Shown here one piece after another: positions 1 through 14,872 of a stretch of DNA of 16,102 nucleotides. Positions within the stretch are counted from its first letter, which is position 1. Each line of letters opens with the position of its first letter. A program made the position numbers and the translations under genes. A model generated the notes under the pieces. The model was not told the DNA's origin, did no database searches, and was given only the letters and a program-made list of their open reading frames with translations. The DNA comes from a virus. Lineage: Duplodnaviria > Heunggongvirae > Uroviricota > Caudoviricetes. The stretch spans positions 1-16,102 of IMG/VR virus record IMGVR_UViG_2778261646_000017, one strand, 5' to 3'.

Positions 1-1461
1 ATGAAAAAATTACTGCGTCTTTTTTTCCCGCTCTCGCTGCGGGTACGTTTTCTGTTGGCAACGGCAGCGGTAGTACTGGTGCTTTCGCTTGCCTACGGAA
101 TGGTCGCGCTGATCGGTTATAGCGTCAGTTTCGATAAAACTACGTTTCGGCTGTTACGTGGCGAGAGCAATCTGTTCTATACCCTTGCGAAGTGGGAAAA
201 CAATAAGTTGCATGTCGAGTTACCCGAAAATATCGACAAGCAAAGCCCCACCATGACGCTAATTTATGATGAGAACGGGCAGCTTTTATGGGCGCAACGT
301 GACGTGCCCTGGCTGATGAAGATGATCCAGCCTGACTGGCTGAAATCGAATGGTTTTCATGAAATTGAAGCGGATGTTAACGATACCAGCCTCTTGCTGA
401 GTGGAGATCATTCGATACAGCAACAGTTGCAGGAAGTGCGGGAAGATGATGACGACGCGGAGATGACCCACTCGGTAGCGGTAAACGTCTACCCGGCAAC
501 ATCGCGGATGCCAAAGTTAACCATTGTGGTGGTGGATACCATTCCGGTGGAGCTAAAAAGTTCCTATATGGTCTGGAGCTGGTTTATCTATGTGCTCTCA
601 GCCAATCTGCTGTTAGTGATCCCGCTGCTGTGGGTCGCCGCCTGGTGGAGTTTACGCCCCATCGAAGCCCTGGCAAAAGAAGTCCGCGAACTGGAAGAAC
701 ATAACCGCGAATTGCTCAATCCTGCCACAACGCGAGAACTGACCAGTCTGGTACGAAACCTGAACCGACTGTTAAAAAGTGAACGCGAACGTTACGACAA
801 ATATCGTACGACGCTCACCGACCTGACCCATAGTCTGAAAACGCCACTGGCGGTGCTGCAAAGTACGCTGCGTTCTCTGCGTAGTGAGAAGATGAGCGTC
901 AGTGATGCTGAGCCGGTAATGCTGGAGCAAATCAGCCGCATTTCACAGCAAATTGGCTACTACCTGCATCGTGCCAGTATGCGCGGCGGGACATTGCTTA
1001 GCCGCGAGCTGCATCCGGTCGCCCCACTGTTGGACAATCTCACCTCGGCGCTGAACAAAGTGTATCAACGCAAAGGGGTCAATATCTCTCTCGATATTTC
1101 GCCAGAGATCAGCTTTGTTGGTGAGCAGAACGATTTTGTCGAGGTGATGGGCAATGTGCTGGATAATGCCTGTAAATATTGCCTCGAGTTTGTCGAAATT
1201 TCTGCAAGGCAAACCGACGAGCATCTCTATATTGTGGTCGAGGATGATGGCCCCGGTATTCCATTAAGCAAGCGAGAGGTCATTTTCGACCGTGGTCAAC
1301 GGGTTGATACTTTACGCCCTGGGCAAGGTGTGGGGCTGGCGGTAGCCCGCGAAATCACCGAGCAATATGAGGGTAAAATCGTCGCCGGAGAGAGCATGCT
1401 GGGCGGTGCGCGGATGGAGGTGATTTTTGGTCGCCAGCATTCTGCGCCGAAAGATGAATAA
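1..1461 (+). CDS. phoQ: Two-component sensor histidine kinase PhoQ (complete, 486 aa)
   Basis: 486-aa ORF starting [33 protein letters not shown]; periplasmic acidic patch [12 protein letters not shown] region, H-box [10 protein letters not shown], ATPase G-boxes DDGPGI and GQGVGL; recognised as E. coli PhoQ. Confidence 0.97.
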
Positions 1462-1583
1462 ATATGTCCTTTTATCACCACAGCAAGGCAACCCATTGAT
1501 TTAATTAAACAACCCACACTGCAAAAAGTGCTAAAAACAGCAAATTGACTACACCATTAACTACACCGTTCGGTGCACTGTAT

Positions 1584-1610
1584 GAAACAACGTGGAACAA
1601 ATAGACACAA
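1584..1610. promoter_or_regulatory. Partial third copy of the phased GAACAA element (gaAACAAcgtgGAACAAatagacacaag)
   Basis: 17 nt (gaaacaacgtggaacaa) identical to the start of the reverse complement of 14781-14810; lies 123 bp after the phoQ stop. Confidence 0.4.
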
Positions 1611-1900
1611 GAAATATACAGGCGGGTAATCTTTCCAGGGGGAAGCGCACCAATTCATGAGGGGCGTTAATGTCGATATGGGGATCCCCATAACGGGGCT
1701 ACCGGATTTTTTTTCCGGTTAACTGTTAATCAGGCTGGTGGGTTTTACCTGTTCGGTAGGTGTTATGATTATCGTAATACCTTTCCCCCAGTGGGGTAAA
1801 AGCTCCAACCGTAACGATGTTCGTTGTGGTTGCCTTGATGGTCTGCGTGGTCATTATGACCATTCCCAAAAACAACATATTCGTTGTTTTTCTGTGCCCC

Positions 1901-2330
1901 GACCTCCTCAAATTGAGGAGGTCGAAAGTATCAACCAGTTACCGCGCCGACTTCCTCAAATTGAGGTTCCCGAAAATATCAGCGGGTTAACGATCAAACT
2001 GGCGAGTAATTAAACTGCGAAAATTTCGCATGTGAGGGATGTAGTCGGCGCAATTTTGCGCTTTGCTTTAATCTCAGTAAGTTACCGCGCCAACTTCCAC
2101 AGTCTGTGGAAATTGGGAAGAATCAACGGTTTAGGCCTTAATCATCTGCGTAATCATAAGTAATCATAATGTTCATTCAGCCACGCAATTTTGCGTTATC
2201 GGGAATATCAGCAAGTTACCGCGCCGGATTCCGCCAATGGCTGTTTCCGAAAGAATCAACGGGTTAGGCTGGTTTCCCCGATGTTCGCCGCTGGCGAATT
2301 TCGAAAATATCAACCAGTTACCGCCGCAAC
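1901..2330. repeat. Array of seven copies of a degenerate 12-17 bp motif (ATCARC-NR-GTTA, four extended to AGTTACCGCGCC) interleaved with hairpins
   Basis: Motif copies at 1931-1948, 1976-1992, 2074-2091, 2121-2137, 2205-2225, 2254-2269, 2307-2327; perfect 11-bp-arm palindrome gacctcctcaa-a-ttgaggaggtc at 1901-1923 with a degenerate copy at 1949-1970; palindrome ttccacag-t-ctgtggaa at 2094-2110. Confidence 0.6.
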
Positions 2331-2599
2331 CGCTCCGGCTTCTTCCAGTGGTACGTTATTTTTTCTTTCTCCCGATGCAGTTCAACGCGGCGATTGTAGG
2401 CCAGCATTTCAAGAACGCGGATCCGTATGTTGCGCATATCAACATCATTAAGCTGGATACCATCACGGCGCATCACCTCAGCAACAACACGCGCATAATT
2501 TTCGGCTGTCACGCTGTCCGGCTGCGTGGTCTGTTCGTCAGCCTGCTGGTTGATTCCAGAGACGCGGCGGATTAATCGCAGTATTTCGGCTTCTGTCAT
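2318..2599 (-). CDS. Hypothetical protein, 93 aa (orphan gene after TerL; candidate accessory gene)
   Basis: ORF MTEAEILRLIRRVSGINQQADEQ...; GAGG Shine-Dalgarno 9 nt upstream of ATG at 2599; enteric-like codon usage; starts 14 bp after the TerL stop. No family recognised. Confidence 0.55.
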   Translation of the reverse strand: MTEAEILRLIRRVSGINQQADEQTTQPDSVTAENYARVVAEVMRRDGIQLNDVDMRNIRIRVLEMLAYNRRVELHREKEKITYHWKKPERLRR

Positions 2600-2612
2600 G
2601 CTGCTGACCTCA

Positions 2613-4274
2613 TTACACCCCGCTAAATTCTTCCAGTTTCTGGCGGTGGCTGTCGCTTATATCAAAAGCAAAATCCTCATGCTCTGCCTGAAATGTACCA
2701 AACGCCATCAGTGCCGCTACGCTCGGGTCTATCTTGTTCGGTGATTTTTTCTTGTTCGGCTTGATATTGGCGTTCGCGTCACTCTGCATCACGACGTTAC
2801 TCATCGACCAGGACAACACCGGATCGCCACGATGCACAATCACCCTGCGGTTAACAAAAACTTCGAACGATTTCGCCGCCGGACTGAATCTGAGGTAGGT
2901 TTGCGGGAACGGCTCCACCTCAAAGCCTGCCCCCTGTAATTGCGTTCTCAGGTGCGTGGCGTTCCACGTATCGAAGCCCACCCGCCTGATATTAAATTTC
3001 TCGGCGTCCTGCATGATGTCATCTCTGATCCGGTCGTAATCAATGCAGTCGCCAGGCGTTGTGCGTATCCAGCCCGCTTTAGCCCACTGGCGATAGACAG
3101 CGCGATTTTTATTGGCTGGGTTCTGTAGCTGGAACTCCGGCAGATAATGACGGGAAACCAGCATGATATTTTTACCGACCGGAAAGGCATAGCATACGCT
3201 GGAAATATCGCTGGTTGATGATAAGTCCAGCCCCGCGTAACACTCCTGACCGTGTAAATCTTCCTCCGTGAACGTTCCGGTACACTCAGCCCATGCACCA
3301 TTACCCATCCACGGGGTAGTCCCCTGACACCAGATATTAAATCGCTTTGTCATCATCTCCACCCACTGCGACGGAATACCCCGCGCTTTCTGGATGGTTG
3401 AGGCCAGTTTTTCACGATCCACGGAAACATCGATGTTAGGGTTAGCCTTTATCCACATCGCCGGATCATCAACCTCGTTTTCGTCGTCCAGTTCGTAAAT
3501 CAGTACAAAAATTGAATCGTTGACCTCTTCGCCGTCCAGGATCTGGCAGCAATAATCATAGTGCTGCTTACAGGCTGAAACGACGTTACTGCCCGATGTG
3601 GTAATGGCAAATAACAGCCCTTCGGGACGTGCGCCCATCCCCATATCAAGTGCGGAATAAACCCCGTTGTCTGGGTGCAGGTGATATTCATCCACAATGG
3701 CAAGACTCGGGTTTGTCCCCTCAATGGTTGCCGCTTTTGCTGCCAGTGGCTTTAACAGGCTGTTGGTTTTCGGGTGTATCACCTTATGCGCCTGAATATT
3801 CACCCGCCTGCGTAACGGTCGGGATAAAAGGCACATCTGACGCGCATCATCAAAGACGATCCGCGCCTGGTCACGGCTCACCGCTGCGGTGTAGATATCC
3901 TGCTGACCGTTCTCCATAATCAGAAACCAGTTAGCCAGAATCGCGGCGGTCGTGGATTTCGCATTTTTGCGCGGCACTTCGATAAAGGCGCTCGTGTATT
4001 TGCGCCGTCCGGTGGCCTTAACCTTAAAGCCGAGGATGCACGCAAAGGCGAACTGCTGCCACGGCTCCAGCTCAATGGGTCTGCCACGCATCGGTCCTTT
4101 TACGTGCGGGCACACCCTGGAAAAGGCAATAAACCGCTCCACAACCTCACGATCGAACGTGTAAAGGGGGCTTTTAAGGTCCGAAAAGTACCGTTTAACA
4201 GCCTGTTTTAACCGTTTACAGGCCGGAATTTTGCCCGTTTTTACGTCTTCTGCGTACTTATTCCAGGCGGTCAA
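2613..4274 (-). CDS. terL: Terminase large subunit (Terminase_1-type ATPase/nuclease), 553 aa
   Basis: N-terminus YAEDVKTGKIPACKRLKQAVKRYFSDL typical of TerL; Walker A VPRKNAKST; Walker B-like LAIVDEYH; apparent TTG start inside the TerS 3' end with AGAGGA SD (17-nt overlap with TerS). Confidence 0.93.
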   Translation of the reverse strand: MTAWNKYAEDVKTGKIPACKRLKQAVKRYFSDLKSPLYTFDREVVERFIAFSRVCPHVKGPMRGRPIELEPWQQFAFACILGFKVKATGRRKYTSAFIEVPRKNAKSTTAAILANWFLIMENGQQDIYTAAVSRDQARIVFDDARQMCLLSRPLRRRVNIQAHKVIHPKTNSLLKPLAAKAATIEGTNPSLAIVDEYHLHPDNGVYSALDMGMGARPEGLLFAITTSGSNVVSACKQHYDYCCQILDGEEVNDSIFVLIYELDDENEVDDPAMWIKANPNIDVSVDREKLASTIQKARGIPSQWVEMMTKRFNIWCQGTTPWMGNGAWAECTGTFTEEDLHGQECYAGLDLSSTSDISSVCYAFPVGKNIMLVSRHYLPEFQLQNPANKNRAVYRQWAKAGWIRTTPGDCIDYDRIRDDIMQDAEKFNIRRVGFDTWNATHLRTQLQGAGFEVEPFPQTYLRFSPAAKSFEVFVNRRVIVHRGDPVLSWSMSNVVMQSDANANIKPNKKKSPNKIDPSVAALMAFGTFQAEHEDFAFDISDSHRQKLEEFSGV

Positions 4275-4614
4275 GCTCGTCCTCTTCTTCTGTTTCCGGT
4301 GGATTTTTACGGCGGCTTATCGGGTCAAAACCGAGCAAGGAGGCCATTTTTATCATCACTCTTTCAGCGTCGGATTTTGCGCTTAATGCGGGGTTTCTGC
4401 TCTCGCCGCCCTGACTGTTAACAATGCTGAACCCGCGCGCCGCAAGGTCTGCAACGGCTTTCCGGTAAATGGAGTAGTTGACGCAATACAGTTCCAGATT
4501 GCTCCAGTCGGCGGGGGTCAGGTCTCCCCGTTCCGCAAGCTGCCGCGATTTTTCCCGCCACTGCTTCACGGCGATATCATCCAGGTAGGCGGGGGCTTTC
4601 GGTGGTCTTGCCAT
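4258..4614 (-). CDS. terS: Terminase small subunit, P27-family-like, 118 aa
   Basis: MARPPKAPAYLDDIAVKQWREKSRQLAERGDLTPADWSNLELYCVNYSIY...NPALSAKSDAERVMIKMASLLGFDP with acidic C-terminus; directly upstream of and overlapping TerL. Confidence 0.8.
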   Translation of the reverse strand: MARPPKAPAYLDDIAVKQWREKSRQLAERGDLTPADWSNLELYCVNYSIYRKAVADLAARGFSIVNSQGGESRNPALSAKSDAERVMIKMASLLGFDPISRRKNPPETEEEDELDRLE

Positions 4615-4665
4615 GCTTATTTTTCGTCAGATTATTTTTCAAAAAATTCCCGTGCATAAAAATTT

Positions 4666-4724
4666 GGGGAGGCGTTCGGTGCCCGGCGGGGTCGGGTTTG
4701 TCCTGAAAACGCCCCCCACCCCGT
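4666..4724. other. Putative cos (cohesive-end) site: GC-rich segment with partial dyad symmetry in the 288-bp HNH-TerS intergenic gap
   Basis: ggggaggcgttcggtgcccggcggggtcgggtttgtcctgaaaacgccccccacccc; it is the only long non-coding gap in an otherwise overlap-coupled operon; HK97-like cos phages place cos between the HNH gene and terS. Confidence 0.4.
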
Positions 4725-4902
4725 CATACAGCCTCATCAGCGATTGCGGAAACATTCCATAACCTCGCGGTCACGGTCGGTTAATCGCTTCGCTGTGATG
4801 CGTTCTGCGCGTCCTGACGCTTTATCTTTATGCCCTGTTTCCTGTGTCTTCCATGCGTCACGCTGCCTTATAAGTCCACGGATAAGGCGGTTTTGTTCCC
4901 GC

Positions 4903-5343
4903 TCATTCATCAGCGTCATACATCCAGTTATTGCGGTTAGCGGCCCGTTCTTCCTCTTCATGAAATCCACCTGCGGCACGCTTGCTTTTTGTTGCCGGAT
5001 CAAGCCATTTCGTTTTCTGGTTATGACACGCCTGGCACAATGGTTGATGGTTCCATTCGGGCCAGAAGAGAACATCATCACCGCCATTAATCGGGATAAT
5101 GTGATCCACCACCACGGCGGGCGTATATATCCCCTTCTCAAGGCATCGCACGCATAACGGGTTTTTACTCAGATACATGGCGCGGTATTTGTCCCACTGT
5201 CTGGAGTACCCACGCGCGCGGCGGTGTCCTCGTCTGGCATCCTCTGCACGCCATGCCGCCCGCCTGTGCTCCTCACACTTGCCGGACTTCACGCGCCTGT
5301 TACAGCCTGGTTCTGTGCATCGTCTTAATGGTTGCCACGGCAT
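4903..5343 (-). CDS. HNH endonuclease (packaging-associated), 146 aa
   Basis: Cys pairs CTEPGC...C and CVRC...C, HNH core VVDHIIPINGGDD...NHQPLCQACHNQKT; GGGGGTG SD; sits immediately upstream of the cos-like gap and terS. Confidence 0.88.
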   Translation of the reverse strand: MPWQPLRRCTEPGCNRRVKSGKCEEHRRAAWRAEDARRGHRRARGYSRQWDKYRAMYLSKNPLCVRCLEKGIYTPAVVVDHIIPINGGDDVLFWPEWNHQPLCQACHNQKTKWLDPATKSKRAAGGFHEEEERAANRNNWMYDADE

Positions 5344-5639
5344 CAGTACACCCCCACATCACGGTAAGCCGTCCAGAGCGCGCCAATCGTCATGGGTACG
5401 CGCGTTTTTGCGTTATCCGCTACCAGCTGGCGATTCTCGTACAGGTGAGCGATAAACATCATGCAGCCAATCTTTATGGCTGGCGTGAACTCCAGCCCGT
5501 CATCAAAGCGCCTGCCTATATGTATCTGGCACGCCTCAAGCGATGCGGCAATGTATCCGCTGATTAACTGGTCTTCCTCGTCGCCATCGATGCGGCAATG
5601 GAGTTTCACTTCTTCCAGGGTGATAAGTTCTTCTGTCAT
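5343..5639 (-). CDS. gp6-like head-tail connector protein, 98 aa
   Basis: N-terminal LITLEEVKLHCRIDGDEEDQLISGYIAASLEACQ matches the gp6-like connector signature; GAGGG SD; ATGA start-stop overlap with the upstream adaptor gene. Confidence 0.75.
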   Translation of the reverse strand: MTEELITLEEVKLHCRIDGDEEDQLISGYIAASLEACQIHIGRRFDDGLEFTPAIKIGCMMFIAHLYENRQLVADNAKTRVPMTIGALWTAYRDVGVY

Positions 5640-5974
5640 TTTTCCGCGCCCTCACGACAAAGAATTTCAAGGCGTGTCCTGGCGGCATCCGGCAGCGGCT
5701 GCCCGATGATATTCAGTACACGCCCCGCCAGCGGCCCCGTATTGACCTTTATCCGGCTGGTGGCGTTGATGTCCTTCCTGTAGCGTATCCATATCCTTAC
5801 CGTTCCAGTCGCCAGTTCTGCACCCGATGAAATGGCCTCCTTGCTGCTGATCATGTTCACGCTTGCCCAGAGTGTGTGACCGTCCACCCACGTTTCGAGT
5901 ATTTCGCCGGTTATATCCCTGGTCTGTTTCAGGGTCTGAATCGTTACCCTGTCACGCAGTCGCCCTATGTTCAT
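5636..5974 (-). CDS. Head-tail adaptor / head-closure (joining) protein, about 112 aa
   Basis: GRLRDRVTIQ...TGEILETW...LWASV...RIWIRYR pattern of the phage head-tail joining family; start chosen at ATG 5974, which forms an ATGA overlap with the portal stop (the ORF track's longer start at 6016 has no SD). Confidence 0.75.
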   Translation of the reverse strand: MNIGRLRDRVTIQTLKQTRDITGEILETWVDGHTLWASVNMISSKEAISSGAELATGTVRIWIRYRKDINATSRIKVNTGPLAGRVLNIIGQPLPDAARTRLEILCREGAEK

Positions 5975-7182
5975 TCCGGTTTTTCTCCCTCGCTGATTTT
6001 TACTTCCTGTTTCCATGCCTGGCTGAACTCATCACCACCATCACGCGGGGACAGCCCTTCACGTTCGCGGGCTTCGTTCGGGCACATAACGCCGGATTTG
6101 ATGCCGCGTTCATAGGTGGCAAAGCGTTCGCCAGGTGTGGCCCGTAACAGGTCCGCGCTGTCAAACTCCACCTGATACCGGATACCAGGTACAGGTGAGG
6201 CCACCAGCAGGGCGTTTTTTATCTGCTGCTCAAAGTTCGCCAGCCACGGGCGCATCGTCATGGTGAGAAATGCGCGGCTTGCCTCGCTGAAATTGCTGTA
6301 GGTGCTGTTGCTGTATTCCTGCAAAAAAATCGGCGAGACGTTGAACATTCGGGCGATGTCTTCAATGGTGAAGCGACGGGAGGCCAGCCATTCAGCATCC
6401 TGATTACTCATGCCCAGCTGCTGATAGCTCATACCCCCTTCAAGGATGGGCGTTTTTCCGGCGTTTCTGGCCCCTTTGTAGCGTTCCAGTGCGGCTAATG
6501 CCTGTTTGCCCTTCACGCCGTCCAGCCATTCGCCTGACGTGATAACCCCTGCCGCCATCATGCCATCACGCATCACGCTCGCGCCGTGGCGTTGTTGGGC
6601 CAGCCCAAGCCCCAGCGATTCGCGGCAGATGGTTACAGGTGAGCGCCCCATAAAACCGTCATCCGTGGAGTAACGAAGGTGGAGAACCTCCCACGGTAAA
6701 TAGTTGCGGGTGTTTCCGGTGTAGGCGTCAGTGATGCAGTAGCGCCAGTTATGCTCACCTGTCTGCTCCACGTTCACCGACTGCGGCGGGTAAGGATGTA
6801 AAGCCACCGGAAAACCATCACGCCCCCACCGAATCACCGCATAAGCATTACCGTTTAACAGGCAGTGGCGGATCATCATTCGCTTAAACTGGTAGGGGGT
6901 TTGCCACGCGTTCGGGCGCTCGTTGAGGATGTGATCGACCGGATGAGAATCAAGCCACTCGCGGGCCTCCTTCCCCTTCTCATTGCGTACCAGGTACAGG
7001 TAACACGGCATGGTAGCCACCGCCTCAGAGATGACCGTCACGGCGTTCATGACGGCGGGCAGTGATTCCGCTGTCCCCGATGATACGTACTCACCCGCCC
7101 CCGTGTTCGATGTGCCGGCCAGCGCCATAAACTCATCAAGCGTCATGCTGCGCTGCTCTTTTTTTCTTCTGAAAGGCCACAT
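5971..7182 (-). CDS. Portal protein (HK97-family-like), 403 aa
   Basis: 403-aa ORF between protease and adaptor with portal-like features (…FNVSPIFLQEYSNSTYSNFSEASRAFLTMTMRPW…); GGGGGTG SD; start 1 nt after the protease stop. Confidence 0.9.
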   Translation of the reverse strand: MWPFRRKKEQRSMTLDEFMALAGTSNTGAGEYVSSGTAESLPAVMNAVTVISEAVATMPCYLYLVRNEKGKEAREWLDSHPVDHILNERPNAWQTPYQFKRMMIRHCLLNGNAYAVIRWGRDGFPVALHPYPPQSVNVEQTGEHNWRYCITDAYTGNTRNYLPWEVLHLRYSTDDGFMGRSPVTICRESLGLGLAQQRHGASVMRDGMMAAGVITSGEWLDGVKGKQALAALERYKGARNAGKTPILEGGMSYQQLGMSNQDAEWLASRRFTIEDIARMFNVSPIFLQEYSNSTYSNFSEASRAFLTMTMRPWLANFEQQIKNALLVASPVPGIRYQVEFDSADLLRATPGERFATYERGIKSGVMCPNEAREREGLSPRDGGDEFSQAWKQEVKISEGEKPE

Positions 7183-7183
7183 A

Positions 7184-7741
7184 TCACACCCCCGCTAAAT
7201 CCGCCCACCAGCGGCGATTATCCGCACGCGGCATTTTTTCGGGGTGCTGCTCGTACAGGGAGCGGCGGGCCAGCTCCACGCCAGAATCAGGGTAAGCCGG
7301 TACGGATGTAACGGTAATTTCGTACAGTTCCGCCACCAGCACGGTGCGCACGCATGGATCTGTTGTGGTATCCCATACATCCTTACGGGAGCGAAAGCCA
7401 AAGCTCATGCCGGATATATCACCTCGTTTAACCAGTTCGATAACGTCCCGCCCTGTACTGGTATCCGGTGGGGTCAGTTCAAAGCGTAACCCTGTGTCGT
7501 CCTCTTCCAGTTTCAGCGTGCCGGAACGGGTGCGCCCCAGTAACATGCTGTGGTCATGCTCATACAGGCCGCGAACGTCATTACCCGCTGCAAGCCATTC
7601 AGTAAACGCTCCCCGCTGGAATTTTTCGTAAAACTCCCCCCATAGCAGCTCTGAAAGGTTATCCCAGCGAACAACGTAGCCTGTAAGCGTGTTGCTGGCG
7701 CTGGTGGTGATTTCCGATGACCGGATTTCCATACTCTTCAT
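7184..7741 (-). CDS. Prohead maturation protease (HK97-family-like), about 185 aa
   Basis: MKSMEIRSSEITT...GYVVRWDNLSE...DHS..LLGRTRSGTL...GDISGMSFGF motifs; start placed at ATG 7741 (GGTGA SD) because the longer start at 7756 lies directly on the tail of the upstream terminator. Confidence 0.85.
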   Translation of the reverse strand: MKSMEIRSSEITTSASNTLTGYVVRWDNLSELLWGEFYEKFQRGAFTEWLAAGNDVRGLYEHDHSMLLGRTRSGTLKLEEDDTGLRFELTPPDTSTGRDVIELVKRGDISGMSFGFRSRKDVWDTTTDPCVRTVLVAELYEITVTSVPAYPDSGVELARRSLYEQHPEKMPRADNRRWWADLAGV

Positions 7742-7756
7742 AATTTTTTCACCCAT

Positions 7757-7786
7757 AAAACACTAAAGGGGCTTTTAAGCCCCTTC
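7757..7786 (-). terminator. Rho-independent terminator between the capsid and protease genes
   Basis: On the - strand: AAGGGGCT-TAAA-AGCCCCTT stem-loop followed by TTAGTGTTTT, 10 nt after the capsid stop. Confidence 0.6.
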
Positions 7787-7795
7787 TGTATGCTG

Positions 7796-8953
7796 TTAAT
7801 CGTCGTCCTGTGGCAGTTCCAGAATCTTGATCGCGTTCGAATCCACCACGCCACCGCCTAAATATTTCTGCGTGAAAATTTTGATGAAGCCCGGCTCTGT
7901 GAGGTTGTCCGGTCTGGTGCGAACACCTGTTTCGTGATCAACAATGTAGTAACCGCGTTTGAAGTCACCCAGGGCAATAACGTTATCAGGCATAAACTCC
8001 AGATATTCGACCGGAAGGCCCAGCAACGTATCAGGATCACCCGCCTGTAAACGGTCGCGCCAGATGTAATCACCGTTCGCGTTCTTCACCTTCTGAAGTT
8101 TTGCGGCCGTCGTGGAGTTAACCACCCAGACCGCGTTTTTGCGATATTTTTTATGTAATGCAAATTTCAGGTCGATCAGCGGGTCCGCAGATGTCCACGC
8201 CAGAGATTCGGAAGGTTTAATTACCTGTAACGTACCAAAATCACGCTCTTTGTCGTTCTTCTCTGCACGGGGTACGGATAAAAAGCCTTTTGCTTTTTTG
8301 TCACCGTCGCCCACAACCAGATCGCTTTCTTCGGTTTCCGTGAAGGTGTCGCCAATCTCACCCGTCAGCCATGAAAGGATGTCCACATCGGAAAAATCCA
8401 CGATTTCCTGTGTGGTGCGCGGGTACGCATAGACCGGATACAGCTTAATGCTCACCTCGTTAATCTGCGGGGTGCTGGTCTGTTCGCGTGCCTTACCCTC
8501 TTCACCGTGGTTAACGGTCGCACCGCCAGCGGAAACAAGCTGCTTAAACTCGTTGCTGCTGATTTTCTTCACGGTACAGATGCGGCGCATGGTGGATTCA
8601 TCCGCCAGCATTCGCATGATTTCGGTGTTCAGCTCGGGGATAACGGTATAACCACCATCAGCGGGAACGCCTGTACTTAATGCGCGGGTTTCACCTGTCA
8701 GGATGTAGTTTCGTAGTTCTGCGGGGTCAGTGGTCTGACTGCTTTTACCTGGCTTGCTGCGCTCTTCGTCTGCAATGGCTTCAAGGCGGGAAATGTCTTT
8801 ATCGAGGGATTCAGCTTTAGCGCGTAATTCGTCAAATTTTGCGCCCTCAGCATCGTTAAGACTGCGGTTTTCTTTTTCCGCGTTCTCCAGCATGTCGCGC
8901 ATCTGATTTTTAATGGCGGTTTTCTGCTGGCGTAATTCGATTATTCTCGGCAT
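7796..8953 (-). CDS. Major capsid protein, HK97-fold with N-terminal coiled-coil scaffold (delta) domain, 385 aa
   Basis: N-terminal 60 aa heptad-rich (LRQQKTAIKNQMRDMLENAEKENRSLNDAEGAKFDELRAKAESLDKDISRLEA); C-terminal body with capsid-like features (…GYYIVDHETGV…); followed by a terminator. Confidence 0.93.
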   Translation of the reverse strand: MPRIIELRQQKTAIKNQMRDMLENAEKENRSLNDAEGAKFDELRAKAESLDKDISRLEAIADEERSKPGKSSQTTDPAELRNYILTGETRALSTGVPADGGYTVIPELNTEIMRMLADESTMRRICTVKKISSNEFKQLVSAGGATVNHGEEGKAREQTSTPQINEVSIKLYPVYAYPRTTQEIVDFSDVDILSWLTGEIGDTFTETEESDLVVGDGDKKAKGFLSVPRAEKNDKERDFGTLQVIKPSESLAWTSADPLIDLKFALHKKYRKNAVWVVNSTTAAKLQKVKNANGDYIWRDRLQAGDPDTLLGLPVEYLEFMPDNVIALGDFKRGYYIVDHETGVRTRPDNLTEPGFIKIFTQKYLGGGVVDSNAIKILELPQDDD

Positions 8954-8960
8954 AAAAAAA

Positions 8961-8990
8961 GTCCTGGGGTTAAGTAAGGAACTCCAGGAC
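8961..8990 (-). promoter_or_regulatory. Stem-loop plus U7 tract immediately 5' of the capsid ATG; the stem contains the AGGA Shine-Dalgarno
   Basis: - strand reads GTCCTGG-(16-nt loop)-CCAGGAC-TTTTTTT-ATG; the only SD-like sequence (AGGA, 8 nt before ATG) is in the 3' arm of the 7-bp stem. Confidence 0.5.
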
Positions 8991-9167
8991 GCGGCAAAAA
9001 CTCAACCGTTTTTCATAAGGAAATCAGCAATCGCACCGATCGTTTTCCCGCCTGGTAATGAATATTGGCGAGAACATTAACAGGCGGAAAAGTGGCCCCA
9101 GCGTCCTGGCACCACGGGCGAGAATAATCATGATTCAGTTCGGGTAAAATATGCCGATCCGGTCAGC

Positions 9168-9193
9168 GAACAACGTGGAACAACCACGAACAA
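9168..9193. promoter_or_regulatory. Phased hexamer element GAACAA-cgtg-GAACAA-ccac-GAACAA, about 215 bp upstream of the capsid gene
   Basis: Three perfect GAACAA hexamers at 10-bp spacing; 9169-9193 is identical to the reverse complement of 14781-14805. Confidence 0.5.
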
Positions 9194-9210
9194 ATAATTT
9201 ACAAAACATG

Positions 9211-9235
9211 ACAAAAAGCCGGATTGCTCCGGCTG
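9211..9235 (-). terminator. Rho-independent terminator after the PerC-like gene (end of the early operon)
   Basis: - strand: AGCCGGA-GCAA-TCCGGCT followed by TTTTTGT, 6 nt after the stop. Confidence 0.6.
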
Positions 9236-9240
9236 TGTGA

Positions 9241-9513
9241 TTATCTGTCCTGGTAATTTCGCCATATTTCATCACCAGCACCATCCATACCCATTTCGGC
9301 ATAAGTGCGATCGACCGCCTTTTTCAGGTCTCCGTAATTATCCGGCGGCTCCGGTGGCCTCTGTGCCTTCCTGGAACATTCCAGCCGTCGCATCGTGATG
9401 TGATGCCGTTCCTTGTCTGTCTCCACCAGTTGCATGACTTCACCCCATCGCGCCGACGCTCTCCGGTAAAAGCCTTTCGCCTCCAGTTCTTCCGCTATGC
9501 GGTCATGTACCAT
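9241..9513 (-). CDS. PerC-like small transcriptional activator (putative), 90 aa
   Basis: MVHDRIAEELEAKGFYRRASARWGEVM... resembles my recollection of the PerC-family N-terminal signature (LE..G.WRRAA.RW); strong GAGGGGGG SD; family assignment not verified. Confidence 0.55.
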   Translation of the reverse strand: MVHDRIAEELEAKGFYRRASARWGEVMQLVETDKERHHITMRRLECSRKAQRPPEPPDNYGDLKKAVDRTYAEMGMDGAGDEIWRNYQDR

Positions 9514-9522
9514 CGCCCCCCC

Positions 9523-9933
9523 TCAGAACGGAATATCATCACCGTAAGGGTCATCGCCTCCCGCTGGTGGCTGATTACCCTGTGTGCCTGTGGTCTTGCG
9601 CCGGCTCCCACCAGGTCGCGCCGTTCTGGCACTGATTACGCTGTCTGCAATAACCTGCCAGCCCTGCCGCGTTTCGCCGTTCTGGCCTGTCCACTGGCTT
9701 ACCTGCATGTTACCCGCCACGCTCACCAGCTCGCCTTTGTGGTGTTTTGCCAGTGCGTCGGCCTGTCTGCCAAACGCCAGGACGGATAACCACATCGTCG
9801 CCTGTCCGTCATCTGCCTGATTGCACGGCAGGGGGACCGCCATGCTTGCCATAGCCATTTGTGTGCCCTTGCTGGTGGTCTTTAACTGCGGGTCAGCCAC
9901 CAGCCGCCCGTAAGCGGCTATCTGTGCTGTCAT
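9523..9933 (-). CDS. ssb: Single-stranded DNA-binding protein, divergent, with canonical acidic DDIPF C-terminal tail, 136 aa
   Basis: OB-fold-like core (YGRLVADPQLK...WLSVLAFGRQAD...KGELVSVAGNMQVSQW), Gly/Pro-rich linker and C-terminal DDPYGDDIPF; ATGA overlap with the upstream gene. Confidence 0.8.
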   Translation of the reverse strand: MTAQIAAYGRLVADPQLKTTSKGTQMAMASMAVPLPCNQADDGQATMWLSVLAFGRQADALAKHHKGELVSVAGNMQVSQWTGQNGETRQGWQVIADSVISARTARPGGSRRKTTGTQGNQPPAGGDDPYGDDIPF

Positions 9934-10187
9934 GATTCCACCTCTCCGGTTTTAACGTTGATGGTTGTTACCTGTTCCGCTTCGGCAATCTCCCGTTCCG
10001 TCAGCGTGGCAAAGTTTGCCGCCGCCGTGGTCATGAATGCGCTTATCAGGTCGGGATGTGCTTTCGCGTATCCTTCCCCCGTGTTGCGGTCGATGATTTT
10101 TATCGCCACTCTCAGCCAGTGCTCTGTAAGGTCAATGGCGCGGTTATGCTGCTTCTTCTGATTATTAAGTTTTCCTGATGTGCGCAT
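9930..10187 (-). CDS. Hypothetical protein, 85 aa
   Basis: ORF MRTSGKLNNQKKQHNRAIDLTEHW...; GAGGGGG SD; translationally coupled to ssb. No family recognised. Confidence 0.55.
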   Translation of the reverse strand: MRTSGKLNNQKKQHNRAIDLTEHWLRVAIKIIDRNTGEGYAKAHPDLISAFMTTAAANFATLTEREIAEAEQVTTINVKTGEVES

Positions 10188-10229
10188 TTTTATTTTTACC
10201 CCCTCGTTTAAAAAGTTTTGAGTTGTGCC

Positions 10230-10465
10230 TCCCCTTGTCTACCTTATCTACCTTACTGGCTCTCATGCCAGTAATGGCGCGGCTTTCAGCGGGGTAGAGT
10301 GCTTTTATCCACTATCTACCCCGTATCTACCTCCCTGTCTGATTCAGGTAAAATCAGGTAGAGAGGGTAGATAGTAGGTAGACAGTGAAAAAAGGCTGTC
10401 TACCTAAGTTAATATACTGAATTAAATGTATTTTTCTTTACTCAGGTAGACAGGGTAGACAGCCA
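10230..10465. repeat. Iteron-type replication origin: at least 11 copies of GGTAGA / TCTACC in both orientations flanking an AT-rich core
   Basis: tgtctacc, tatctacc (x3), ggtagag, aggtagagagggtagatagtaggtagacag, gtctacct, then AT-rich taagttaatatactgaattaaatgtatttttctttac, then aggtagacagggtagacag; immediately 3' of the primase gene. Confidence 0.7.
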
Positions 10466-10475
10466 TTGCAAAAAA

Positions 10476-12224
10476 TTATAAAAACGCGTCGCAATCGTCT
10501 GTTGTTATTGCGTTAGTCTGCGTTACTCCCTTAACTTTCCGCGTAATATATTCATGTCCGTAAACTTTCGCGGCTGGCTTCATAGCCTTGCCAAAGTCAT
10601 TTACGTTTAGCGGTTTGCTCCTGCCTGCGTATGCCATAAACGCCAGATAGACGCGGTAAAGGCTGTTTCTGGTCGTGTACTTCACTGAATCGCCACCGCC
10701 ACCCATCATCAGGCCGCGCGCTTCCTCCAGAAAATTCAGGAACTGGCAAAACTCAATAACCGGATCCGTCTGTTGCTTTATTGCCAGTGCTTCATCACCG
10801 TCACGCTGTTCCAGTAGTAAAGCCCGTGCCTTCTCAGGGTCGGTAAAGTTCGCCAGCAAGCGGCGGATAATGACAGGGATTTCAGCCGCGATCTTTTCCG
10901 GTAGCTCCCTGTCTTTTTCTGCCTCGCTTACGATATTGTCGAAGCGGAAAATAACCCGACGACGTGACACGCCTCCGGCCCGTTCGGTGAATATCATCGG
11001 GTTGTTATTGGTCGCCAGCACCACCGCCCTGATTACCGTAGTGAAACGCTTTTCATATTTCGGGTTGATTTCCACGGGGTCGCCGCCCGTGATTTTCTTG
11101 ATGCCCGTGCCTTCGCCTGTATATTTCGGCTGGTCTGCCAGGACGATAAGACGACTCCCGACAACCTGCGCACGCCCACCAGCATCATCAAGCGATGTCA
11201 TTTCCGCGCTTACCGTGTTTTGTTTCCCCGCTAAAAGGCTGGCGATGTGGGTGAATGTACTTTTGCCGCTCCCGCCGTCTCCGGTGGCCTCAATAAACAT
11301 CTGCCAGTCGTACCGGTTCGCCATAATCATGTACAGCGCGGCACATATACGCATCATCTTGCGCTGGTCTTTTCCGGCTGCGTGATCAAGCCATTTATGA
11401 AAGTTTGGCGCGTTATCGCGGATGTTCTCCCCAGGTGCTGGTGGCGTGTACTCAATGCCGTTGTGCGTGGTGATCCAGTTCTCCGGCGTGTGCGGGGAAA
11501 ATTCCCCCGTTTTCAGGTCAAGCGCACCATTGGCGAACGGCAACAAATCGCCGGACGGCTCGCCCATTGGTTCGGCAATAACTTTTAACGCTTCCACGGC
11601 GTTATTGATTACGCGCTTGCTGAAAGTGGCCCTGTGCTCTGAATAGATCGCCACCATTTCGCGGCTAAGTTCCATTGTGCTGACCGGACACCATACCCCG
11701 CCGCGCCATACGTGAACGATTTCACTTTCCGGATGCACACAAACGCCATCAAATCGACCAGCAAGCATCTGTGCGCGCTCACTGTCTGCCATTTGTGCCA
11801 GTTGCGTATTTTTCTGCTCCGGCATGGTAAGCCCTGCGGCAATATTTTCACGCTCAGCATTCAGATAGCGCCGCCAGTTTTCACACTTCTGGACGTGCAT
11901 TCCTTCGGGGTAAAAATTTGCGTCCTGAATATCTGCCGCCGCCAGCTTCTGACCAATCTTTTTGGTCTCCACCAAATCCAGTTCTCCGGCCTGGTACAGC
12001 CTTACGCGCTTTTTCCCATCCGGAACAATTTTCAGCGCATCAAGTTCGGCAAGCTGATTTGGCCCAAGCCACACAGGCGGCACATTATCGCCGGATGCGG
12101 GGCCGTCCTGCTCCTGCCACTGTTTTGCATGTGACCACGCATCACTACCCGCGAAAATAATTACCTCTGTGTCTTTGTGTTTTATTCCGCGTGGCTGTTT
12201 TTTTACGTTCGGTGCCAGTTTCAT
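10476..12224 (-). CDS. Replication protein: primase / SF3-type helicase (P4 alpha-like, PICI Pri-Rep-like), 582 aa
   Basis: Walker A GDGGSGKST, Walker B-like RLIVLAD, N-terminal primase-like region; ATGA-coupled to the upstream small gene; iterons directly downstream. Confidence 0.88.
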   Translation of the reverse strand: MKLAPNVKKQPRGIKHKDTEVIIFAGSDAWSHAKQWQEQDGPASGDNVPPVWLGPNQLAELDALKIVPDGKKRVRLYQAGELDLVETKKIGQKLAAADIQDANFYPEGMHVQKCENWRRYLNAERENIAAGLTMPEQKNTQLAQMADSERAQMLAGRFDGVCVHPESEIVHVWRGGVWCPVSTMELSREMVAIYSEHRATFSKRVINNAVEALKVIAEPMGEPSGDLLPFANGALDLKTGEFSPHTPENWITTHNGIEYTPPAPGENIRDNAPNFHKWLDHAAGKDQRKMMRICAALYMIMANRYDWQMFIEATGDGGSGKSTFTHIASLLAGKQNTVSAEMTSLDDAGGRAQVVGSRLIVLADQPKYTGEGTGIKKITGGDPVEINPKYEKRFTTVIRAVVLATNNNPMIFTERAGGVSRRRVIFRFDNIVSEAEKDRELPEKIAAEIPVIIRRLLANFTDPEKARALLLEQRDGDEALAIKQQTDPVIEFCQFLNFLEEARGLMMGGGGDSVKYTTRNSLYRVYLAFMAYAGRSKPLNVNDFGKAMKPAAKVYGHEYITRKVKGVTQTNAITTDDCDAFL

Positions 12225-12520
12225 TTTTTACCCCTGAATACGTTAAGCATCTTTTTTATTTCCTGAATATTGGCGCGTGCTTTCTCCCTGCTGGTTGGTT
12301 TACTGCGGGGCGCTGCCTGTACCAGAGAAAAATCACGCCGAAACTGATAAACAGGCATCACGCAATCATATTCGTAGCCTTCACGACGGTAGGTGATGCG
12401 CCGTTCTGCCACGCCTTTAATCGTTACCATGCCGCCATATTTATCGCGGTAAATATCGCCGTTCATAAATTCAGGACGAGCGGGGCCGCTGGCAGTAACG
12501 CCAGAATTTTTATTTTTCAT
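12221..12520 (-). CDS. Hypothetical protein, 99 aa
   Basis: ORF MKNKNSGVTASGPARPEFMNGDIYRDKYGGMVTIKGVAERRITYRREGYEYDCVMPVYQF...; basic C-terminus; no family assigned with confidence. Confidence 0.55.
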   Translation of the reverse strand: MKNKNSGVTASGPARPEFMNGDIYRDKYGGMVTIKGVAERRITYRREGYEYDCVMPVYQFRRDFSLVQAAPRSKPTSREKARANIQEIKKMLNVFRGKK

Positions 12521-12525
12521 GTTTT

Positions 12526-12753
12526 TTATTCTCCGGTGTGCTGCGCTTTATTATTCTCGTGAATTGCCATCACTGTATTTAATTCATTAATAACAGGCGT
12601 TAATAGCGTACGCACGGCAGAAAACATCATTGAATCAGATTCATCGCCACTTTCCGGCACATCAATTAACTTAAGTAGTAATGCGTCCATTTCCTTTGCG
12701 CGGATTAATGCGTTTTCAGAATGAACAAGAACATCAAAGGGTATTTTATGCAT
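12526..12753 (-). CDS. Hypothetical protein, 75 aa (start at the internal ATG with AGGGGGGAG SD)
   Basis: MHKIPFDVLVHSENALIRAKEMDALLLKLIDVPESGDESD...; the longer start offered by the ORF track (12855) has no SD and overlaps the upstream gene. Confidence 0.5.
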   Translation of the reverse strand: MHKIPFDVLVHSENALIRAKEMDALLLKLIDVPESGDESDSMMFSAVRTLLTPVINELNTVMAIHENNKAQHTGE

Positions 12754-12916
12754 GACTCCCCCCCTGGCGAATACGGGCGACAAAAATAAGATGTGCGTGC
12801 GGCAGCTGTGCACGTGCTTCGCGCTCAGTGGCAGCGGTAACGGTGAATATTGCAATACTGTCTGTCAGGCACTGCATAAAGCGCCAGACAAAATAAGGGC
12901 GTGCGAATACAGCCAT
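12746..12916 (-). CDS. Small protein, 56 aa, paralog of the gene at 13203-13406 (possibly the Icd-like cell-division-inhibitor family; unverified)
   Basis: MAVFARPYFVWRFMQCLTDSIAIFTVTAATEREARAQLPHAHLIFVARIRQGGSHA aligns with the C-terminal 50 aa of the upstream paralog (WRF...EARxQ.P......F.ARIRQG.SHA). The reading frame stays open upstream to 13210, so the N-terminus is uncertain. Confidence 0.5.
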   Translation of the reverse strand: MAVFARPYFVWRFMQCLTDSIAIFTVTAATEREARAQLPHAHLIFVARIRQGGSHA

Positions 12917-13202
12917 GTGAAAGGCTCCCAGATGAATTTTAAGGAGTCTCGCTACTACGCTGCTAAACATGGTGGCGAGACGTAACAGGGTTAGCAGACT
13001 GGTCATCTGGAAACCAGCGAGCACAAAGGCTCCCCCGTTACGCCCCGCCATAATGCGGGTATGGGTAGGTTTACGGACACAAAAAAACCGCTTATCGGAT
13101 GTGGGCGGCTGTCCGCCAGATGTATTCAGGCTGCTAAACCCGGTCGCCATGTGGGCGACGGGGGAAGCATACAGCCCCGTGATAATTTTTTGCAAGCGGT
13201 TT

Positions 13203-13406
13203 TTACGCATGATGTGACCCCTGACGAATACGGGCGGCGAATACCATCACGCAGCCAGCCGGGGATTGCTGGCGTGCCTCCTGTTCGCTGGTGGCCTCAA
13301 TGGTAATCACGCGCGGTTGTGCCGTGCTCAGGGCGATAAAACGCCAGATGTATTTATTCAGGTTGTGCGAGTCCCGCCCTTGCGGGTGTGTGGTATGATT
13401 TCTCAT
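13203..13406 (-). CDS. Small protein, 67 aa, paralog of the gene at 12746-12916 (possibly Icd-like; unverified)
   Basis: MRNHTTHPQGRDSHNLNKYIWRFIALSTAQPRVITIEATSEQEARQQSPAGCVMVFAARIRQGSHHA; GAGG SD 6 nt upstream of ATG at 13406; it is the C-terminal part of a 352-aa track ORF whose remainder I reject. Confidence 0.55.
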   Translation of the reverse strand: MRNHTTHPQGRDSHNLNKYIWRFIALSTAQPRVITIEATSEQEARQQSPAGCVMVFAARIRQGSHHA

Positions 13407-13501
13407 AGCTACCTCGATACTTTCGCTATCGTTGGTGGTTAGAGGCTGCGAAAGGACGGCAATCCTTTTCAGCCTCGTTTGCATTGAGTGATAGTTACTC
13501 A

Positions 13502-13582
13502 ACTGGATTCCAGTATAATCATCAAGTGGAATCCACTTCAAGCATTTTGTTTTGGTCTTTTTCGTGTATACTGGATTCCAGT
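13502..13582. promoter_or_regulatory. Three palindromic operators with core TGGAWTCCA, plus -10-like hexamers, in the divergent control region
   Basis: ACTGGA-T-TCCAGT at 13502-13514, AAGTGGA-A-TCCACTT at 13524-13538, ACTGGA-T-TCCAGT at 13570-13582; TATAAT at 13514-13519. Confidence 0.6.
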
Positions 13583-13602
13583 AATCACAAAGGAAACCGG
13601 AA

Positions 13603-13782
13603 ATGGAAAGAGACCATATCAATAACAAATCACAAAAATTACAGGCTCGCGCCCCGCATGAAGTTGTTGAGGCAATGGAGCAAGTCAAAGAAACAGGCGA
13701 GAGCACTGCGCAATTTATCGTTACAGCCATGCGCGGCGAGATCAAACGCCGCCAGCGTCGCAAAGCCAAAGAATCAGAATAA
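13603..13782 (+). CDS. Small ribbon-helix-helix-like DNA-binding protein (putative regulator), 59 aa; not in the ORF track because it is under 60 aa
   Basis: MERDHINNKSQKLQARAPHEVVEAMEQVKETGESTAQFIVTAMRGEIKRRQRRKAKESE; AGGAAA SD 8 nt upstream; predicted strand-helix-helix pattern; operators directly upstream. Confidence 0.5.
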   Translation: MERDHINNKSQKLQARAPHEVVEAMEQVKETGESTAQFIVTAMRGEIKRRQRRKAKESE

Positions 13783-13839
13783 TCACTATCAGCGCCGTGG
13801 CGTGAGGTACTCCGGCGCATTGCTTTACAGGTCAGTACT

Positions 13840-14049
13840 ATGAGCAAAAAACACCGATCAGCAGATGAGATTTTTGCAGAACAACGAAGATTGCTTTTGC
13901 AAAGTATCATTTCACGCCAGCAAGAGAAGGCGCGAGCTAAACAAATGCCACCAAATACAGAACCAGCGCCTACAAGATTTGCGCTTGATGACTTTCTCGA
14001 TAAACACCCCAGGGTAATGAAAGCAAACAAAAACCGCCCACCAGGCTGA
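13840..14049 (+). CDS. Hypothetical protein, 69 aa
   Basis: MSKKHRSADEIFAEQRRLLLQSIISRQQEKARAKQ...; weak AGGT SD; followed by a + strand terminator. No family recognised. Confidence 0.4.
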   Translation: MSKKHRSADEIFAEQRRLLLQSIISRQQEKARAKQMPPNTEPAPTRFALDDFLDKHPRVMKANKNRPPG

Positions 14050-14140
14050 TCACATTGCCCACCAGCCTGATAGCGGCTATCATCCCCGTGCTTATGTTTG
14101 AGATCACACACACAAACGGCGCAGCGGGTTATCTGTTCAG

Positions 14141-14173
14141 AAAGGCGGCTCCATTTCAGGGCCGCTTTTTTTA
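14141..14173 (+). terminator. Rho-independent terminator for the two small + strand genes
   Basis: AAAGGCGGC-(11-nt loop)-GCCGC followed by TTTTTTT on the + strand. Confidence 0.55.
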
Positions 14174-14826: not shown

Positions 14827-14872
14827 CTGTGTGCTTATCCAGTATGCGCATACTGAAAAAACACGAAAAAAA

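Follow-up and report, generated by a model that had tools for sequence, protein, structure and literature searches.

The capsid-first packaging module at phoQ-roxA in Escherichia coli very probably belongs to a cf-PICI and is not a rotated HK97-like map

The minus-strand region 8953-2613 of the window (the whole stretch of 16,102 nucleotides analysed here) is almost certainly the packaging module of a cf-PICI, an allele of the EcCIEDL933 prototype, with which it shares the phoQ-roxA integration site. Circular permutation of an HK97-like module, which a sequence-only reading had proposed as the origin of its gene order, is refuted as a sufficient explanation by a count of gene adjacencies. The capsid-first arrangement is already known: published work gives it as the organisation that defines Proteobacterial cf-PICIs. 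The window comes from the E. coli chromosome and matches that of E. coli N32 at 100%, and the satellite is a 14.8-kb element, set between phoQ and roxA, with int, alpA and primase. Gene identities were assigned from profile matches in Pfam and PHROG, full length for all eight packaging genes, and these searches upheld every gene assignment of the sequence-only reading and its transcription order of capsid, protease and portal, then adaptor and connector, followed by HNH, TerS and TerL (minus strand, 8953 to 2613):

9241-16102, minus strand: rest of the satellite, with a perC-like gene, ssb, D5-type primase (10476-12224), DUF4222, a C4 RNA/icd-like module, alpA (14319-14507) and integrase (14873-16102)
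8954-9240, minus strand: conserved control region upstream of the capsid gene
8953-7796, minus strand: major capsid protein (HK97 fold), 385 aa (Phage_capsid, 7e-62), 99.2% identical to the EcCIEDL933 capsid
7786-7765, minus strand: hairpin (GGGGC-loop-GCCCC) in the capsid-protease spacer, with a T-rich tract after it
7756-7184, minus strand: prohead serine protease, 190 aa (Peptidase_S78, 3.5e-48)
7182-5971, minus strand: portal protein, 403 aa (1e-90)
5974-5636, minus strand: head-closure protein Hc1, 112 aa (Phage_HCP, 1e-23), the 'adaptor' of cf-PICI papers
5639-5343, minus strand: gp6-like head-tail connector (PHROG Ad1), 98 aa (2e-11), the 'connector' of cf-PICI papers
5343-4903, minus strand: HNH endonuclease, 146 aa, a packaging accessory nuclease of HK97-type cos systems
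4919-4737, minus strand: conserved 60-aa ORF (phrog_3173, 7.5e-37; annotated WP_000174068.1), sharing 17 nt with the 3' end of HNH
4736-4615, minus strand: candidate cos region, non-coding, with G-run GGGGTGGGGGG, then ~42 nt, then CCCCAAATTTTTATGCACGGGAATTTTTTGAAAA
4614-4258, minus strand: TerS (Terminase_4 / P27 family), 118 aa (Terminase_4, 1e-23), 100% identical to EcCIEDL933 TerS
4274-2613, minus strand: TerL, 553 aa, ATPase and nuclease domains, TTG start
2599-2318, minus strand: ORF of 93 aa (phrog_1561), function unknown, 13 nt past terL, also in EcCIEDL933 and probably the last gene of the operon
1462-1469, no strand assigned: att core ATATGTCC, directly past the phoQ stop

The element lies within the size range of cf-PICIs (about 10-18 kb, att-bounded) and encodes an integrase with an arm-binding domain (Phage_integrase), an AlpA-type regulator (Phage_AlpA, 5e-17) and a primase-replicase (D5_N/DUF5906 primase). 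All eight packaging genes are present at full length in the published order, a tail module and holin or lysis genes are missing, and 97.9% DNA identity over 9.2 kb links the element to an experimentally validated member, that of EDL933. A classical PICI has no portal, connector or terL and uses the capsid proteins of its helper, whereas the present element carries portal, terL and the two connector genes. An HK97-like temperate phage would show terS-terL-portal-protease-capsid-Ad1-Hc1 followed by tail genes, which are absent here, and only two of eight adjacencies are common. Some relatives have been deposited as 'phages', e.g. vB_KppS-Ant (16.5 kb) and Pasteurella Pmp8, and the phage collection holds virion-derived records with the same module, so that the element might be taken for a complete, very small tailed phage. 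We reject this extremely improbable reading, as no Pfam or PHROG match to tail, tape-measure, baseplate, holin or endolysin was obtained for the ORFs tested in the 14.8-kb element or among the annotated genes of the record, and in published work tails are supplied by the helper. The earlier view that this is a PICI-type element and not a phage is sustained by its gene content, its att boundaries and its near-identity to EcCIEDL933, and nothing in the sequence contradicts a cf-PICI as the best explanation.

E. coli EDL933 carries EcCIEDL933 at the same roxA-phoQ site with the same gene list for the element. In a comparison made via a proxy strain, validated by identical WP accessions, the two DNAs are 97.9% identical over window positions 1-9239, the packaging proteins are 94-100% identical (protease 99.5%, portal 99.3%, TerL 97.8%), AlpA is 100% and Int 98.8% identical, and gene order, small ORFs and control region are the same. 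The most divergent packaging protein is Hc1 (93.8% identity with its EDL933 counterpart and 23-48% with those of other genera). The replication and regulation genes in the middle have been swapped, with a D5_N-type 582-aa primase here in place of a 710-aa DUF927 protein there; the icd/C4 region is different as well, identity stands at 87% for perC and 82% for ssb, and the prototype is 15.4 kb long compared with 14.8 kb here.

Codon differences relative to the EDL933 allele, 132 synonymous against 33 non-synonymous, point to purifying selection. The same order and junction pattern recur in elements of Shigella, Citrobacter, Erwinia (no Hc1 gene detected), Gilliamella and Pasteurella and in a Klebsiella-type virion record; across six genera the order is kept at 23-81% protein identity. 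A capsid-protein scan of genome contigs yielded 12 loci, a number that served for a small survey of gene order and not for a census. Among 5426 complete E. coli genomes the capsid-portal block is present in 534, of which 358 carry it at 95% identity or more. The region might also be read as a rearranged, decaying prophage fragment without function, as the missing tail and lysis genes and damaged relatives (Rosenbergiella locus L009, with a truncated portal fused beside a TerL fragment, and Shigella locus L008, with a deletion at the TerS start) might suggest. Such decay is most implausible and is rejected, given eight genes of full length against their profiles, a 4-to-1 synonymous excess, the conserved gene order, an att repeat that bounds an element with intact int and alpA, and a near-identical prototype that is experimentally functional.

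The gene order of this cf-PICI was compared with that of HK97, which reads terS, terL, portal, protease, MCP, Ad1, Hc1 and so on, with HNH at the right end. Synteny confirmed that the two orders differ, that HNH lies at the far end of the HK97 genome, and that HNH, cos and terS are contiguous in the element. For the adjacency count, the gene sets of the element and of HK97 were each treated as a circle with eight directed adjacencies. Only two of the eight (HNH to TerS and TerS to TerL) are common to both; three (capsid/protease, protease/portal and Hc1/Ad1) have the same neighbours with their order reversed and the strand unchanged, and the remaining three are new with respect to HK97. A rotation keeps all eight adjacencies, and the reversed order on the same strand therefore excludes it. 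Neither rotation nor a single inversion yields reversed capsid-protease-portal and Hc1-Ad1 blocks that stay on the same strand. The idea that an HK97-like circular module was opened at a different point draws on the HNH-cos-TerS-TerL run, which matches the circularised HK97 genome exactly, and on the Bartonella loci L016 and L018 (portal, capsid, HNH, TerS, TerL), which exemplify a true rotation, but in view of the adjacencies we consider it highly improbable for the present element. The capsid-first order would instead represent an old, fixed rearrangement of the satellite lineage.

Base-by-base reading of the junctions bore out the overlaps that had been listed, namely ATGA at portal/Hc1 (5974-5971) and at Hc1/Ad1 (5639-5636), TGATG at Ad1/HNH with base 5343 common to both, and a TTG start of TerL at 4274, 17 nt within TerS. 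A GAGG lies 6 nt upstream of this TTG. The start codon and its 17-nt overlap are kept in 6 of 8 related elements, and protease and portal are separated by a 1-nt spacer (TGAtATG). Tight translational coupling, claimed for the operon as a whole, stands at these listed junctions and fails at capsid/protease, where a 39-nt spacer contains the hairpin 7786-7765. Nor is coupling special here, because HK97 is equally coupled (head-gene spacings of -1, +2, -1, -4 and -4, with a terminator 3' of the capsid gene), and head operons ordinarily show it.

The cos-like gap described between HNH and TerS was upheld in part. Of its 288 nt, all but 122 non-coding nt (4736-4615) are taken up by the 60-aa ORF, which is identical in EDL933 and has homologues in Klebsiella-type and Erwinia elements. 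The 122 nt hold the G-run GGGGTGGGGGG and CCCCAAATTTTTATGCACGGGAATTTTTTGAAAA blocks, which are conserved in elements from E. coli through to Pasteurella and are similar to the sequences flanking cos in HK97, where a G-run and CCCCAAAT are likewise found. The cos ends are predicted within this non-coding stretch upstream of terS, by analogy with HK97 most likely near CCCCAAATTTTTATGCACGGG. The ends of LR881103.1, a linear virion record, lie just past the conserved G-run and 22 nt before terS, and were considered as cos ends; the record is without ~68 nt present between those points in all other members of the family, and it does not fix the cut site. The missing ~68 nt fit a loss of both physical ends in assembly.

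The structural genes do come first after a conserved control region, as had been proposed. In the region 8954-9240 we found a terminator-like hairpin after perC (9234-9217), a conserved TTTTGTAAAT at 9206-9197, three TTGTTC hexamers with 10-bp phasing (9193-9168), and no sigma-70-like promoter. The operon may be a single activator-dependent transcription unit that starts after the perC terminator. Within the TTGTTC lineage the array recurs upstream of alpA, at 14781-14816, and in both att arms; the hexamer sequence upstream of the capsid gene varies between element lineages. In the elements of Klebsiella, Citrobacter and Erwinia, the TTACCC-type hexamers found 5' of the capsid gene have no further copy close to int or alpA, which limits the idea of a shared operator to the TTGTTC lineage. 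The post-capsid hairpin is kept in 7 elements from 6 genera and may act as a partial terminator or an mRNA-stabilising hairpin; with the capsid gene placed before it, it would probably reduce the expression of lower-copy genes. It is conceivable, if rather unlikely, that the capsid-first order is functional and not a historical accident, with a candidate activator site (TTTTGTAAAT plus the three phased hexamers), a promoter-proximal capsid gene and an attenuating GGGGC/GCCCC hairpin acting together. If so, the ratio capsid >> protease > portal/connector > terminase would be set without phage late-gene machinery, and AlpA (or Int) would directly couple excision to head production; this would refine a known system and define no new one.

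At the integration site, a second ATATGTCC copy lies 14,814 bp from the first, just outside the window (position 18277 of locus L001), and the K-12 empty site reads ATATGCCC. A 75-nt direct repeat (window 1543-1617; L001 18125-18199) was rejected as att, as comparison with the K-12 empty site places both copies within the element, and the 8-bp ATATGTCC is the true core. An Rfam search of the structured repeat region 1462-2620 gave no match even at E <= 1.

In the prototype, alpA is triggered by a helper siphophage (HK106 or HK446) and in turn starts excision and replication. Small heads, measuring about 46 x 42 nm, are formed from its own capsid, protease and portal; its HNH, TerS and TerL, also its own, package satellite DNA only, and two connector proteins complete the head and decide which helper-phage tails attach. 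Single mutation of each gene tested in the EcCIEDL933 packaging module abolished transfer, except for hypothetical gene 1792, where transfer was severely reduced (Alqurainy et al., bioRxiv 10.1101/2022.09.08.507074). For other cf-PICIs, later work describes cohesive cos ends. Helper-dependent induction, small capsids made by the satellite and the use of helper tails are on record in the literature for EcCIEDL933 and other members. cf-PICIs build their own heads and borrow tails only, which allows identical islands to cross species boundaries. As a further allele of the prototype, at the same site and in the published order, the window adds nothing new on cf-PICIs. What remains of use is the distinction of this order from a rotated phage map, together with a candidate cos region, a conserved post-capsid hairpin and a candidate operator array common to the alpA, att and capsid-operon regions; for a system already under experimental study, these features could help to direct the mapping of promoters and cos.

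Compared with known systems, the element shares homologous families for all eight genes with HK97 and the helper HK106, which are cos siphophages with an HNH-dependent terminase, and has in common with them an HNH gene that adjoins cos and terS once the genome is circular, a post-capsid hairpin and overlapping junctions. It differs from them in the reversed relative order of capsid/protease/portal and Ad1/Hc1, in the absence of tail, lysis and lysogeny-switch genes, and in a genome about one third in size; the closest true phages have capsids only 33-37% identical and a TerL about 35% identical. Classical Gram-negative PICIs of the EcCICFT073 type have the same int-alpA-primase left half and helper-induced AlpA activation, but have no genes for capsid, portal, connectors or terL and instead divert the proteins of the helper; in SatelliteFinder, portal and connector genes are forbidden for PICI. 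In Proteobacterial cf-PICIs, capsid-protease-portal-connectors come before hnh-terS-terL, an order that the helper phage does not share (Alqurainy et al., bioRxiv 10.1101/2022.09.08.507074). Firmicutes cf-PICIs, which are thought to have arisen independently, agree with the present element in gene content and lifestyle, and differ in having the order portal-protease-capsid or an operon that opens with hnh-terS-terL.

The eight genes between 8953 and 2613 were assigned by Pfam and PHROG searches, which gave full-length matches for all eight and uphold every head and packaging identity proposed by the sequence-only reading.

Packaging genes of the window (Pfam/PHROG assignments)
8953-7796, minus strand, capsid
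7756-7184, minus strand, S78 prohead protease
7182-5971, minus strand, portal
5974-5636, minus strand, Phage_HCP head-closure protein (Hc1)
5639-5343, minus strand, gp6-like connector (Ad1)
5343-4903, minus strand, HNH
4614-4258, minus strand, TerS
4274-2613, minus strand, TerL

Naming is in conflict here, as the 'adaptor' of the literature is the head-closure gene (5636-5974), whereas PHROG gives 'adaptor Ad1' to the next gene. Minus-strand reading bore out the proposed junctions (portal/adaptor, adaptor/connector, connector/HNH and the TTG of TerL). The protease/portal junction is TGAtATG, portal/Hc1 and Hc1/Ad1 overlap in ATGA (5974-5971 and 5639-5636), and Ad1 and HNH meet in TGATG, with base 5343 common to both genes. 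TerL starts on a TTG 17 nt within terS, preceded by GAGG; six of eight related elements, with TerL identities of only 70-81%, have the same TTG and 17-nt overlap, which supports the call. The tight coupling claimed for the operon therefore holds at the overlapping junctions, but not between capsid and protease, where a 39-nt spacer carries a strong hairpin (7786-7765); since overlapping junctions are equally typical of HK97, coupling is not distinctive. Similarly, the cos-like gap claimed between HNH and TerS does include 122 non-coding nt with cos-flank motifs, but it also holds a conserved basic 60-aa ORF (4919-4737, minus strand; phrog_3173, E 7.5e-37) that overlaps the HNH 3' end. This ORF is identical in EDL933 and present in Klebsiella-type and Erwinia elements, and was not detected in the Citrobacter, Gilliamella or Pasteurella elements. 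A 93-aa ORF lies 13 nt 3' of terL.

The window is E. coli chromosome, in a region annotated in the record as flanked by phoQ (window 1-1461) and roxA, and its bases 2000-15000 match E. coli strain N32 at 100%. A single inserted element runs from just past phoQ through the integrase gene (14873-16102) at the right window edge. Comparison with the empty K-12 site defines an 8-bp att core, ATATGTCC, found immediately 3' of the phoQ stop (1462-1469) and again 14,814 bp on, just beyond the window (18277 of locus L001). The element encodes a tyrosine integrase, an AlpA regulator, a D5-type primase, ssb and a PerC-like gene; tail or lysis functions were not detected in it. The roxA-phoQ site of E. 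coli O157:H7 EDL933 is likewise occupied, by an element with a matching gene list; this is EcCIEDL933, the prototype capsid-forming phage-inducible chromosomal island (cf-PICI).

HK97 runs terS, terL, portal, protease, capsid, Ad1, Hc1 and tail genes, with HNH and cos at the far end, and the claimed difference in order is thus borne out by its map. The sequence-only reading explained this difference by circular permutation of an HK97-like module. When both eight-gene sets were taken as circles and their directed adjacencies compared, only HNH to TerS and TerS to TerL were common to the two. Capsid/protease, protease/portal and Hc1/Ad1 remain neighbours on the same strand in the opposite relative order, and portal to Hc1, Ad1 to HNH and TerL to capsid are new. 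Rotation of the HK97 circle would preserve all eight adjacencies and is rejected, as is inversion of the DNA, which would flip strands, whereas the genes stay on the same strand. Circular permutation, with two of eight adjacencies shared, therefore explains only the HNH-cos-terS-terL part, a contiguity to be expected of any HK97-type genome once circularised; the observation itself is upheld, and its interpretation is right in part. Among the loci fetched, a true rotation (portal, capsid, HNH, TerS, TerL) occurs in two Bartonella loci and the canonical order in distant relatives, namely Bacillota MAGs and Rhodovulum.

The cf-PICI order and spacing recur in E. coli, Shigella, the Klebsiella-type virion record LR881103.1, Citrobacter, Erwinia, Gilliamella and Pasteurella, with protein identities of 23-83% outside the E. 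coli/Shigella group. The spacing consists of a hairpin-holding gap, then +1, -4, -4 to -8, about 0, a large gap and -17. Of 5426 complete E. coli genomes, 534 carry the capsid-portal block. Identity to the nearest true phages reaches only 33-37% for capsid and about 35% for TerL; where the capsid gene of such a phage lies about 4.4 kb from the start of the record, the gene order looks canonical. Variants were also seen. Hc1 was not detected between portal and connector in the Erwinia locus; in Rosenbergiella a truncated portal abuts a TerL fragment, and in Shigella about 50 nt are deleted, taking away the usual start of TerS along with part of the cos region. LR881103.1 is a cf-PICI deposited as 'Escherichia phage vB_KppS-Ant'; between the two conserved cos-flank blocks it is about 68 nt short, possibly through loss of physical ends. 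Its 765-aa gene at 2036-4333 is annotated 'tail length tape measure protein' but, judged by its position after terL, may be an accessory gene. In PQ569648.1 ('Klebsiella phage P12620-1', 106.5 kb), terL (81% identical) and capsid (65% identical) genes of cf-PICI type lie at 90984-103419, in the last 16 kb or so, and the record looks like a phage and a satellite joined within one assembly.

A search of the minus strand from 1400 to 10500 gave no sigma-70-like promoter. Between the perC terminator and the capsid gene, TTTTGTAAAT (9197-9206, minus strand) precedes three hexamers with 10-bp phasing, a layout shared with the Klebsiella-type (L002 12058), Citrobacter (L010 9782) and Erwinia (L011 9776) elements. 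The hexamer is TTGTTC in the window and TTACCC-like in those three. A motif scan found TTGTTC-N4-TTGTTC arrays with 10-bp phasing at four places (6 hits against 0.12 expected).

TTGTTC arrays
1585-1600, and 18177 of L001, minus strand, att arms
14781-14816, plus strand, between int and alpA
9168-9193, minus strand, about 215-240 nt 5' of the capsid ATG

The EDL933-type and Shigella elements, whose int/alpA type is that of the window, have kept the arrays. Elements with other int/alpA types lack them, and they are a candidate common operator for AlpA or the arm-binding domain of Int. In a related PICI AlpA activates its own promoter; given this and the shared arrays, action of AlpA on the capsid operon is a reasonable guess. 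After the capsid gene, a GGGGC/GCCCC stem with variable loops and a T-rich tail was present in all seven elements examined, and HK97 likewise has a putative terminator annotated at this point. With the capsid gene leading, a hairpin at this position would tilt expression towards capsid and away from the low-copy proteins encoded downstream. In the non-coding stretch before terS, GGGGTGGGGG... and CCCCAAATTTTTAYGC...ATTTTTT form two blocks whose conservation extends from E. coli to Pasteurella. Their resemblance to the G10 run and CCCCAAAT shortly ahead of the HK97 cos end, and to the T-run ahead of its terS, supports assignment of cos to this stretch, the exact cut not being fixed by the blocks.

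Other features lie outside the packaging genes. At the element end, a non-coding array (1896-2334) comprises five or more hairpins, whose stems differ from one another but are self-complementary, and GAAA-ATCARC..GTTAcc follows each of them (7 occurrences of the motif against 0.4 expected); fold z-scores are -4.3 and -3.2. The array matched nothing in Rfam or protein families, and about 1400 E. coli genomes contain partial, mosaic copies of it. A C4 antisense RNA (RF01695, 72.7 bits; 12968-13055, minus strand) lies within an ORF annotated 'Icd-like' (12746-13210), a P1-type c4-icd arrangement in a satellite, although this ORF matches Icd-like families only over its C-terminal 50 residues or so. 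A mechanical 352-aa ORF (13203-14261, minus strand) covers an annotated Icd-like gene and an Icd-like pseudogene fragment and spans two small opposite-strand genes (YlcI/YnfO family, 13603-13782; hypothetical, 13840-14049). A 48-nt repeat (12737-12784 and 13194-13241) suggests that the icd module is duplicated.

EcCIEDL933 was compared through strain ATCC 43894, chosen because its proteins carry the same RefSeq accessions. Window 1-9239 is colinear with it at 97.9% DNA identity, and packaging proteins share 93.8-100% identity, with no difference in TerS, in the 60-aa ORF or, outside the module, in AlpA. The element centre (primase, icd/C4 region) is a different allele: against the EDL933-type element (L007), 9213-14040 is mosaic, the packaging and int/alpA ends being 98% identical and the replication/regulation centre replaced (D5_N primase here, DUF927 protein there) or only 80-87% identical. 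Codon differences from the EDL933 allele number 132 synonymous and 33 non-synonymous, and the packaging genes are therefore under purifying selection. Of the 33 non-synonymous differences, 7 fall in Hc1 (5636-5974, minus strand), whose identity in other genera is 23-48%; it is the fastest-evolving packaging protein, which fits the published tail-specificity role of the literature's 'adaptor'. A later preprint shows that tail specificity is set by adaptor and connector. Helper phages HK106 and HK446 induce EcCIEDL933 via alpA, and the island builds its own small capsids and requires only tails from the helper; mutation of each packaging gene abolished transfer, except for hypothetical gene '1792', where it was severely reduced (Alqurainy et al., bioRxiv 10.1101/2022.09.08.507074). 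This gene may be the 60-aa ORF or the 93-aa ORF after terL. The same authors describe satellite and helper modules as having 'different genetic organisations' (bioRxiv 10.1101/2022.09.08.507074), and exactly the cf-PICI gene order, with hnh-terS-terL last, is the search criterion of the later preprint. The order being already published as the Proteobacterial cf-PICI organisation, its recognition here is a correct rediscovery of a known architecture, and the window's operon is an allele of the EcCIEDL933 one, the packaging operon already known from cf-PICIs.
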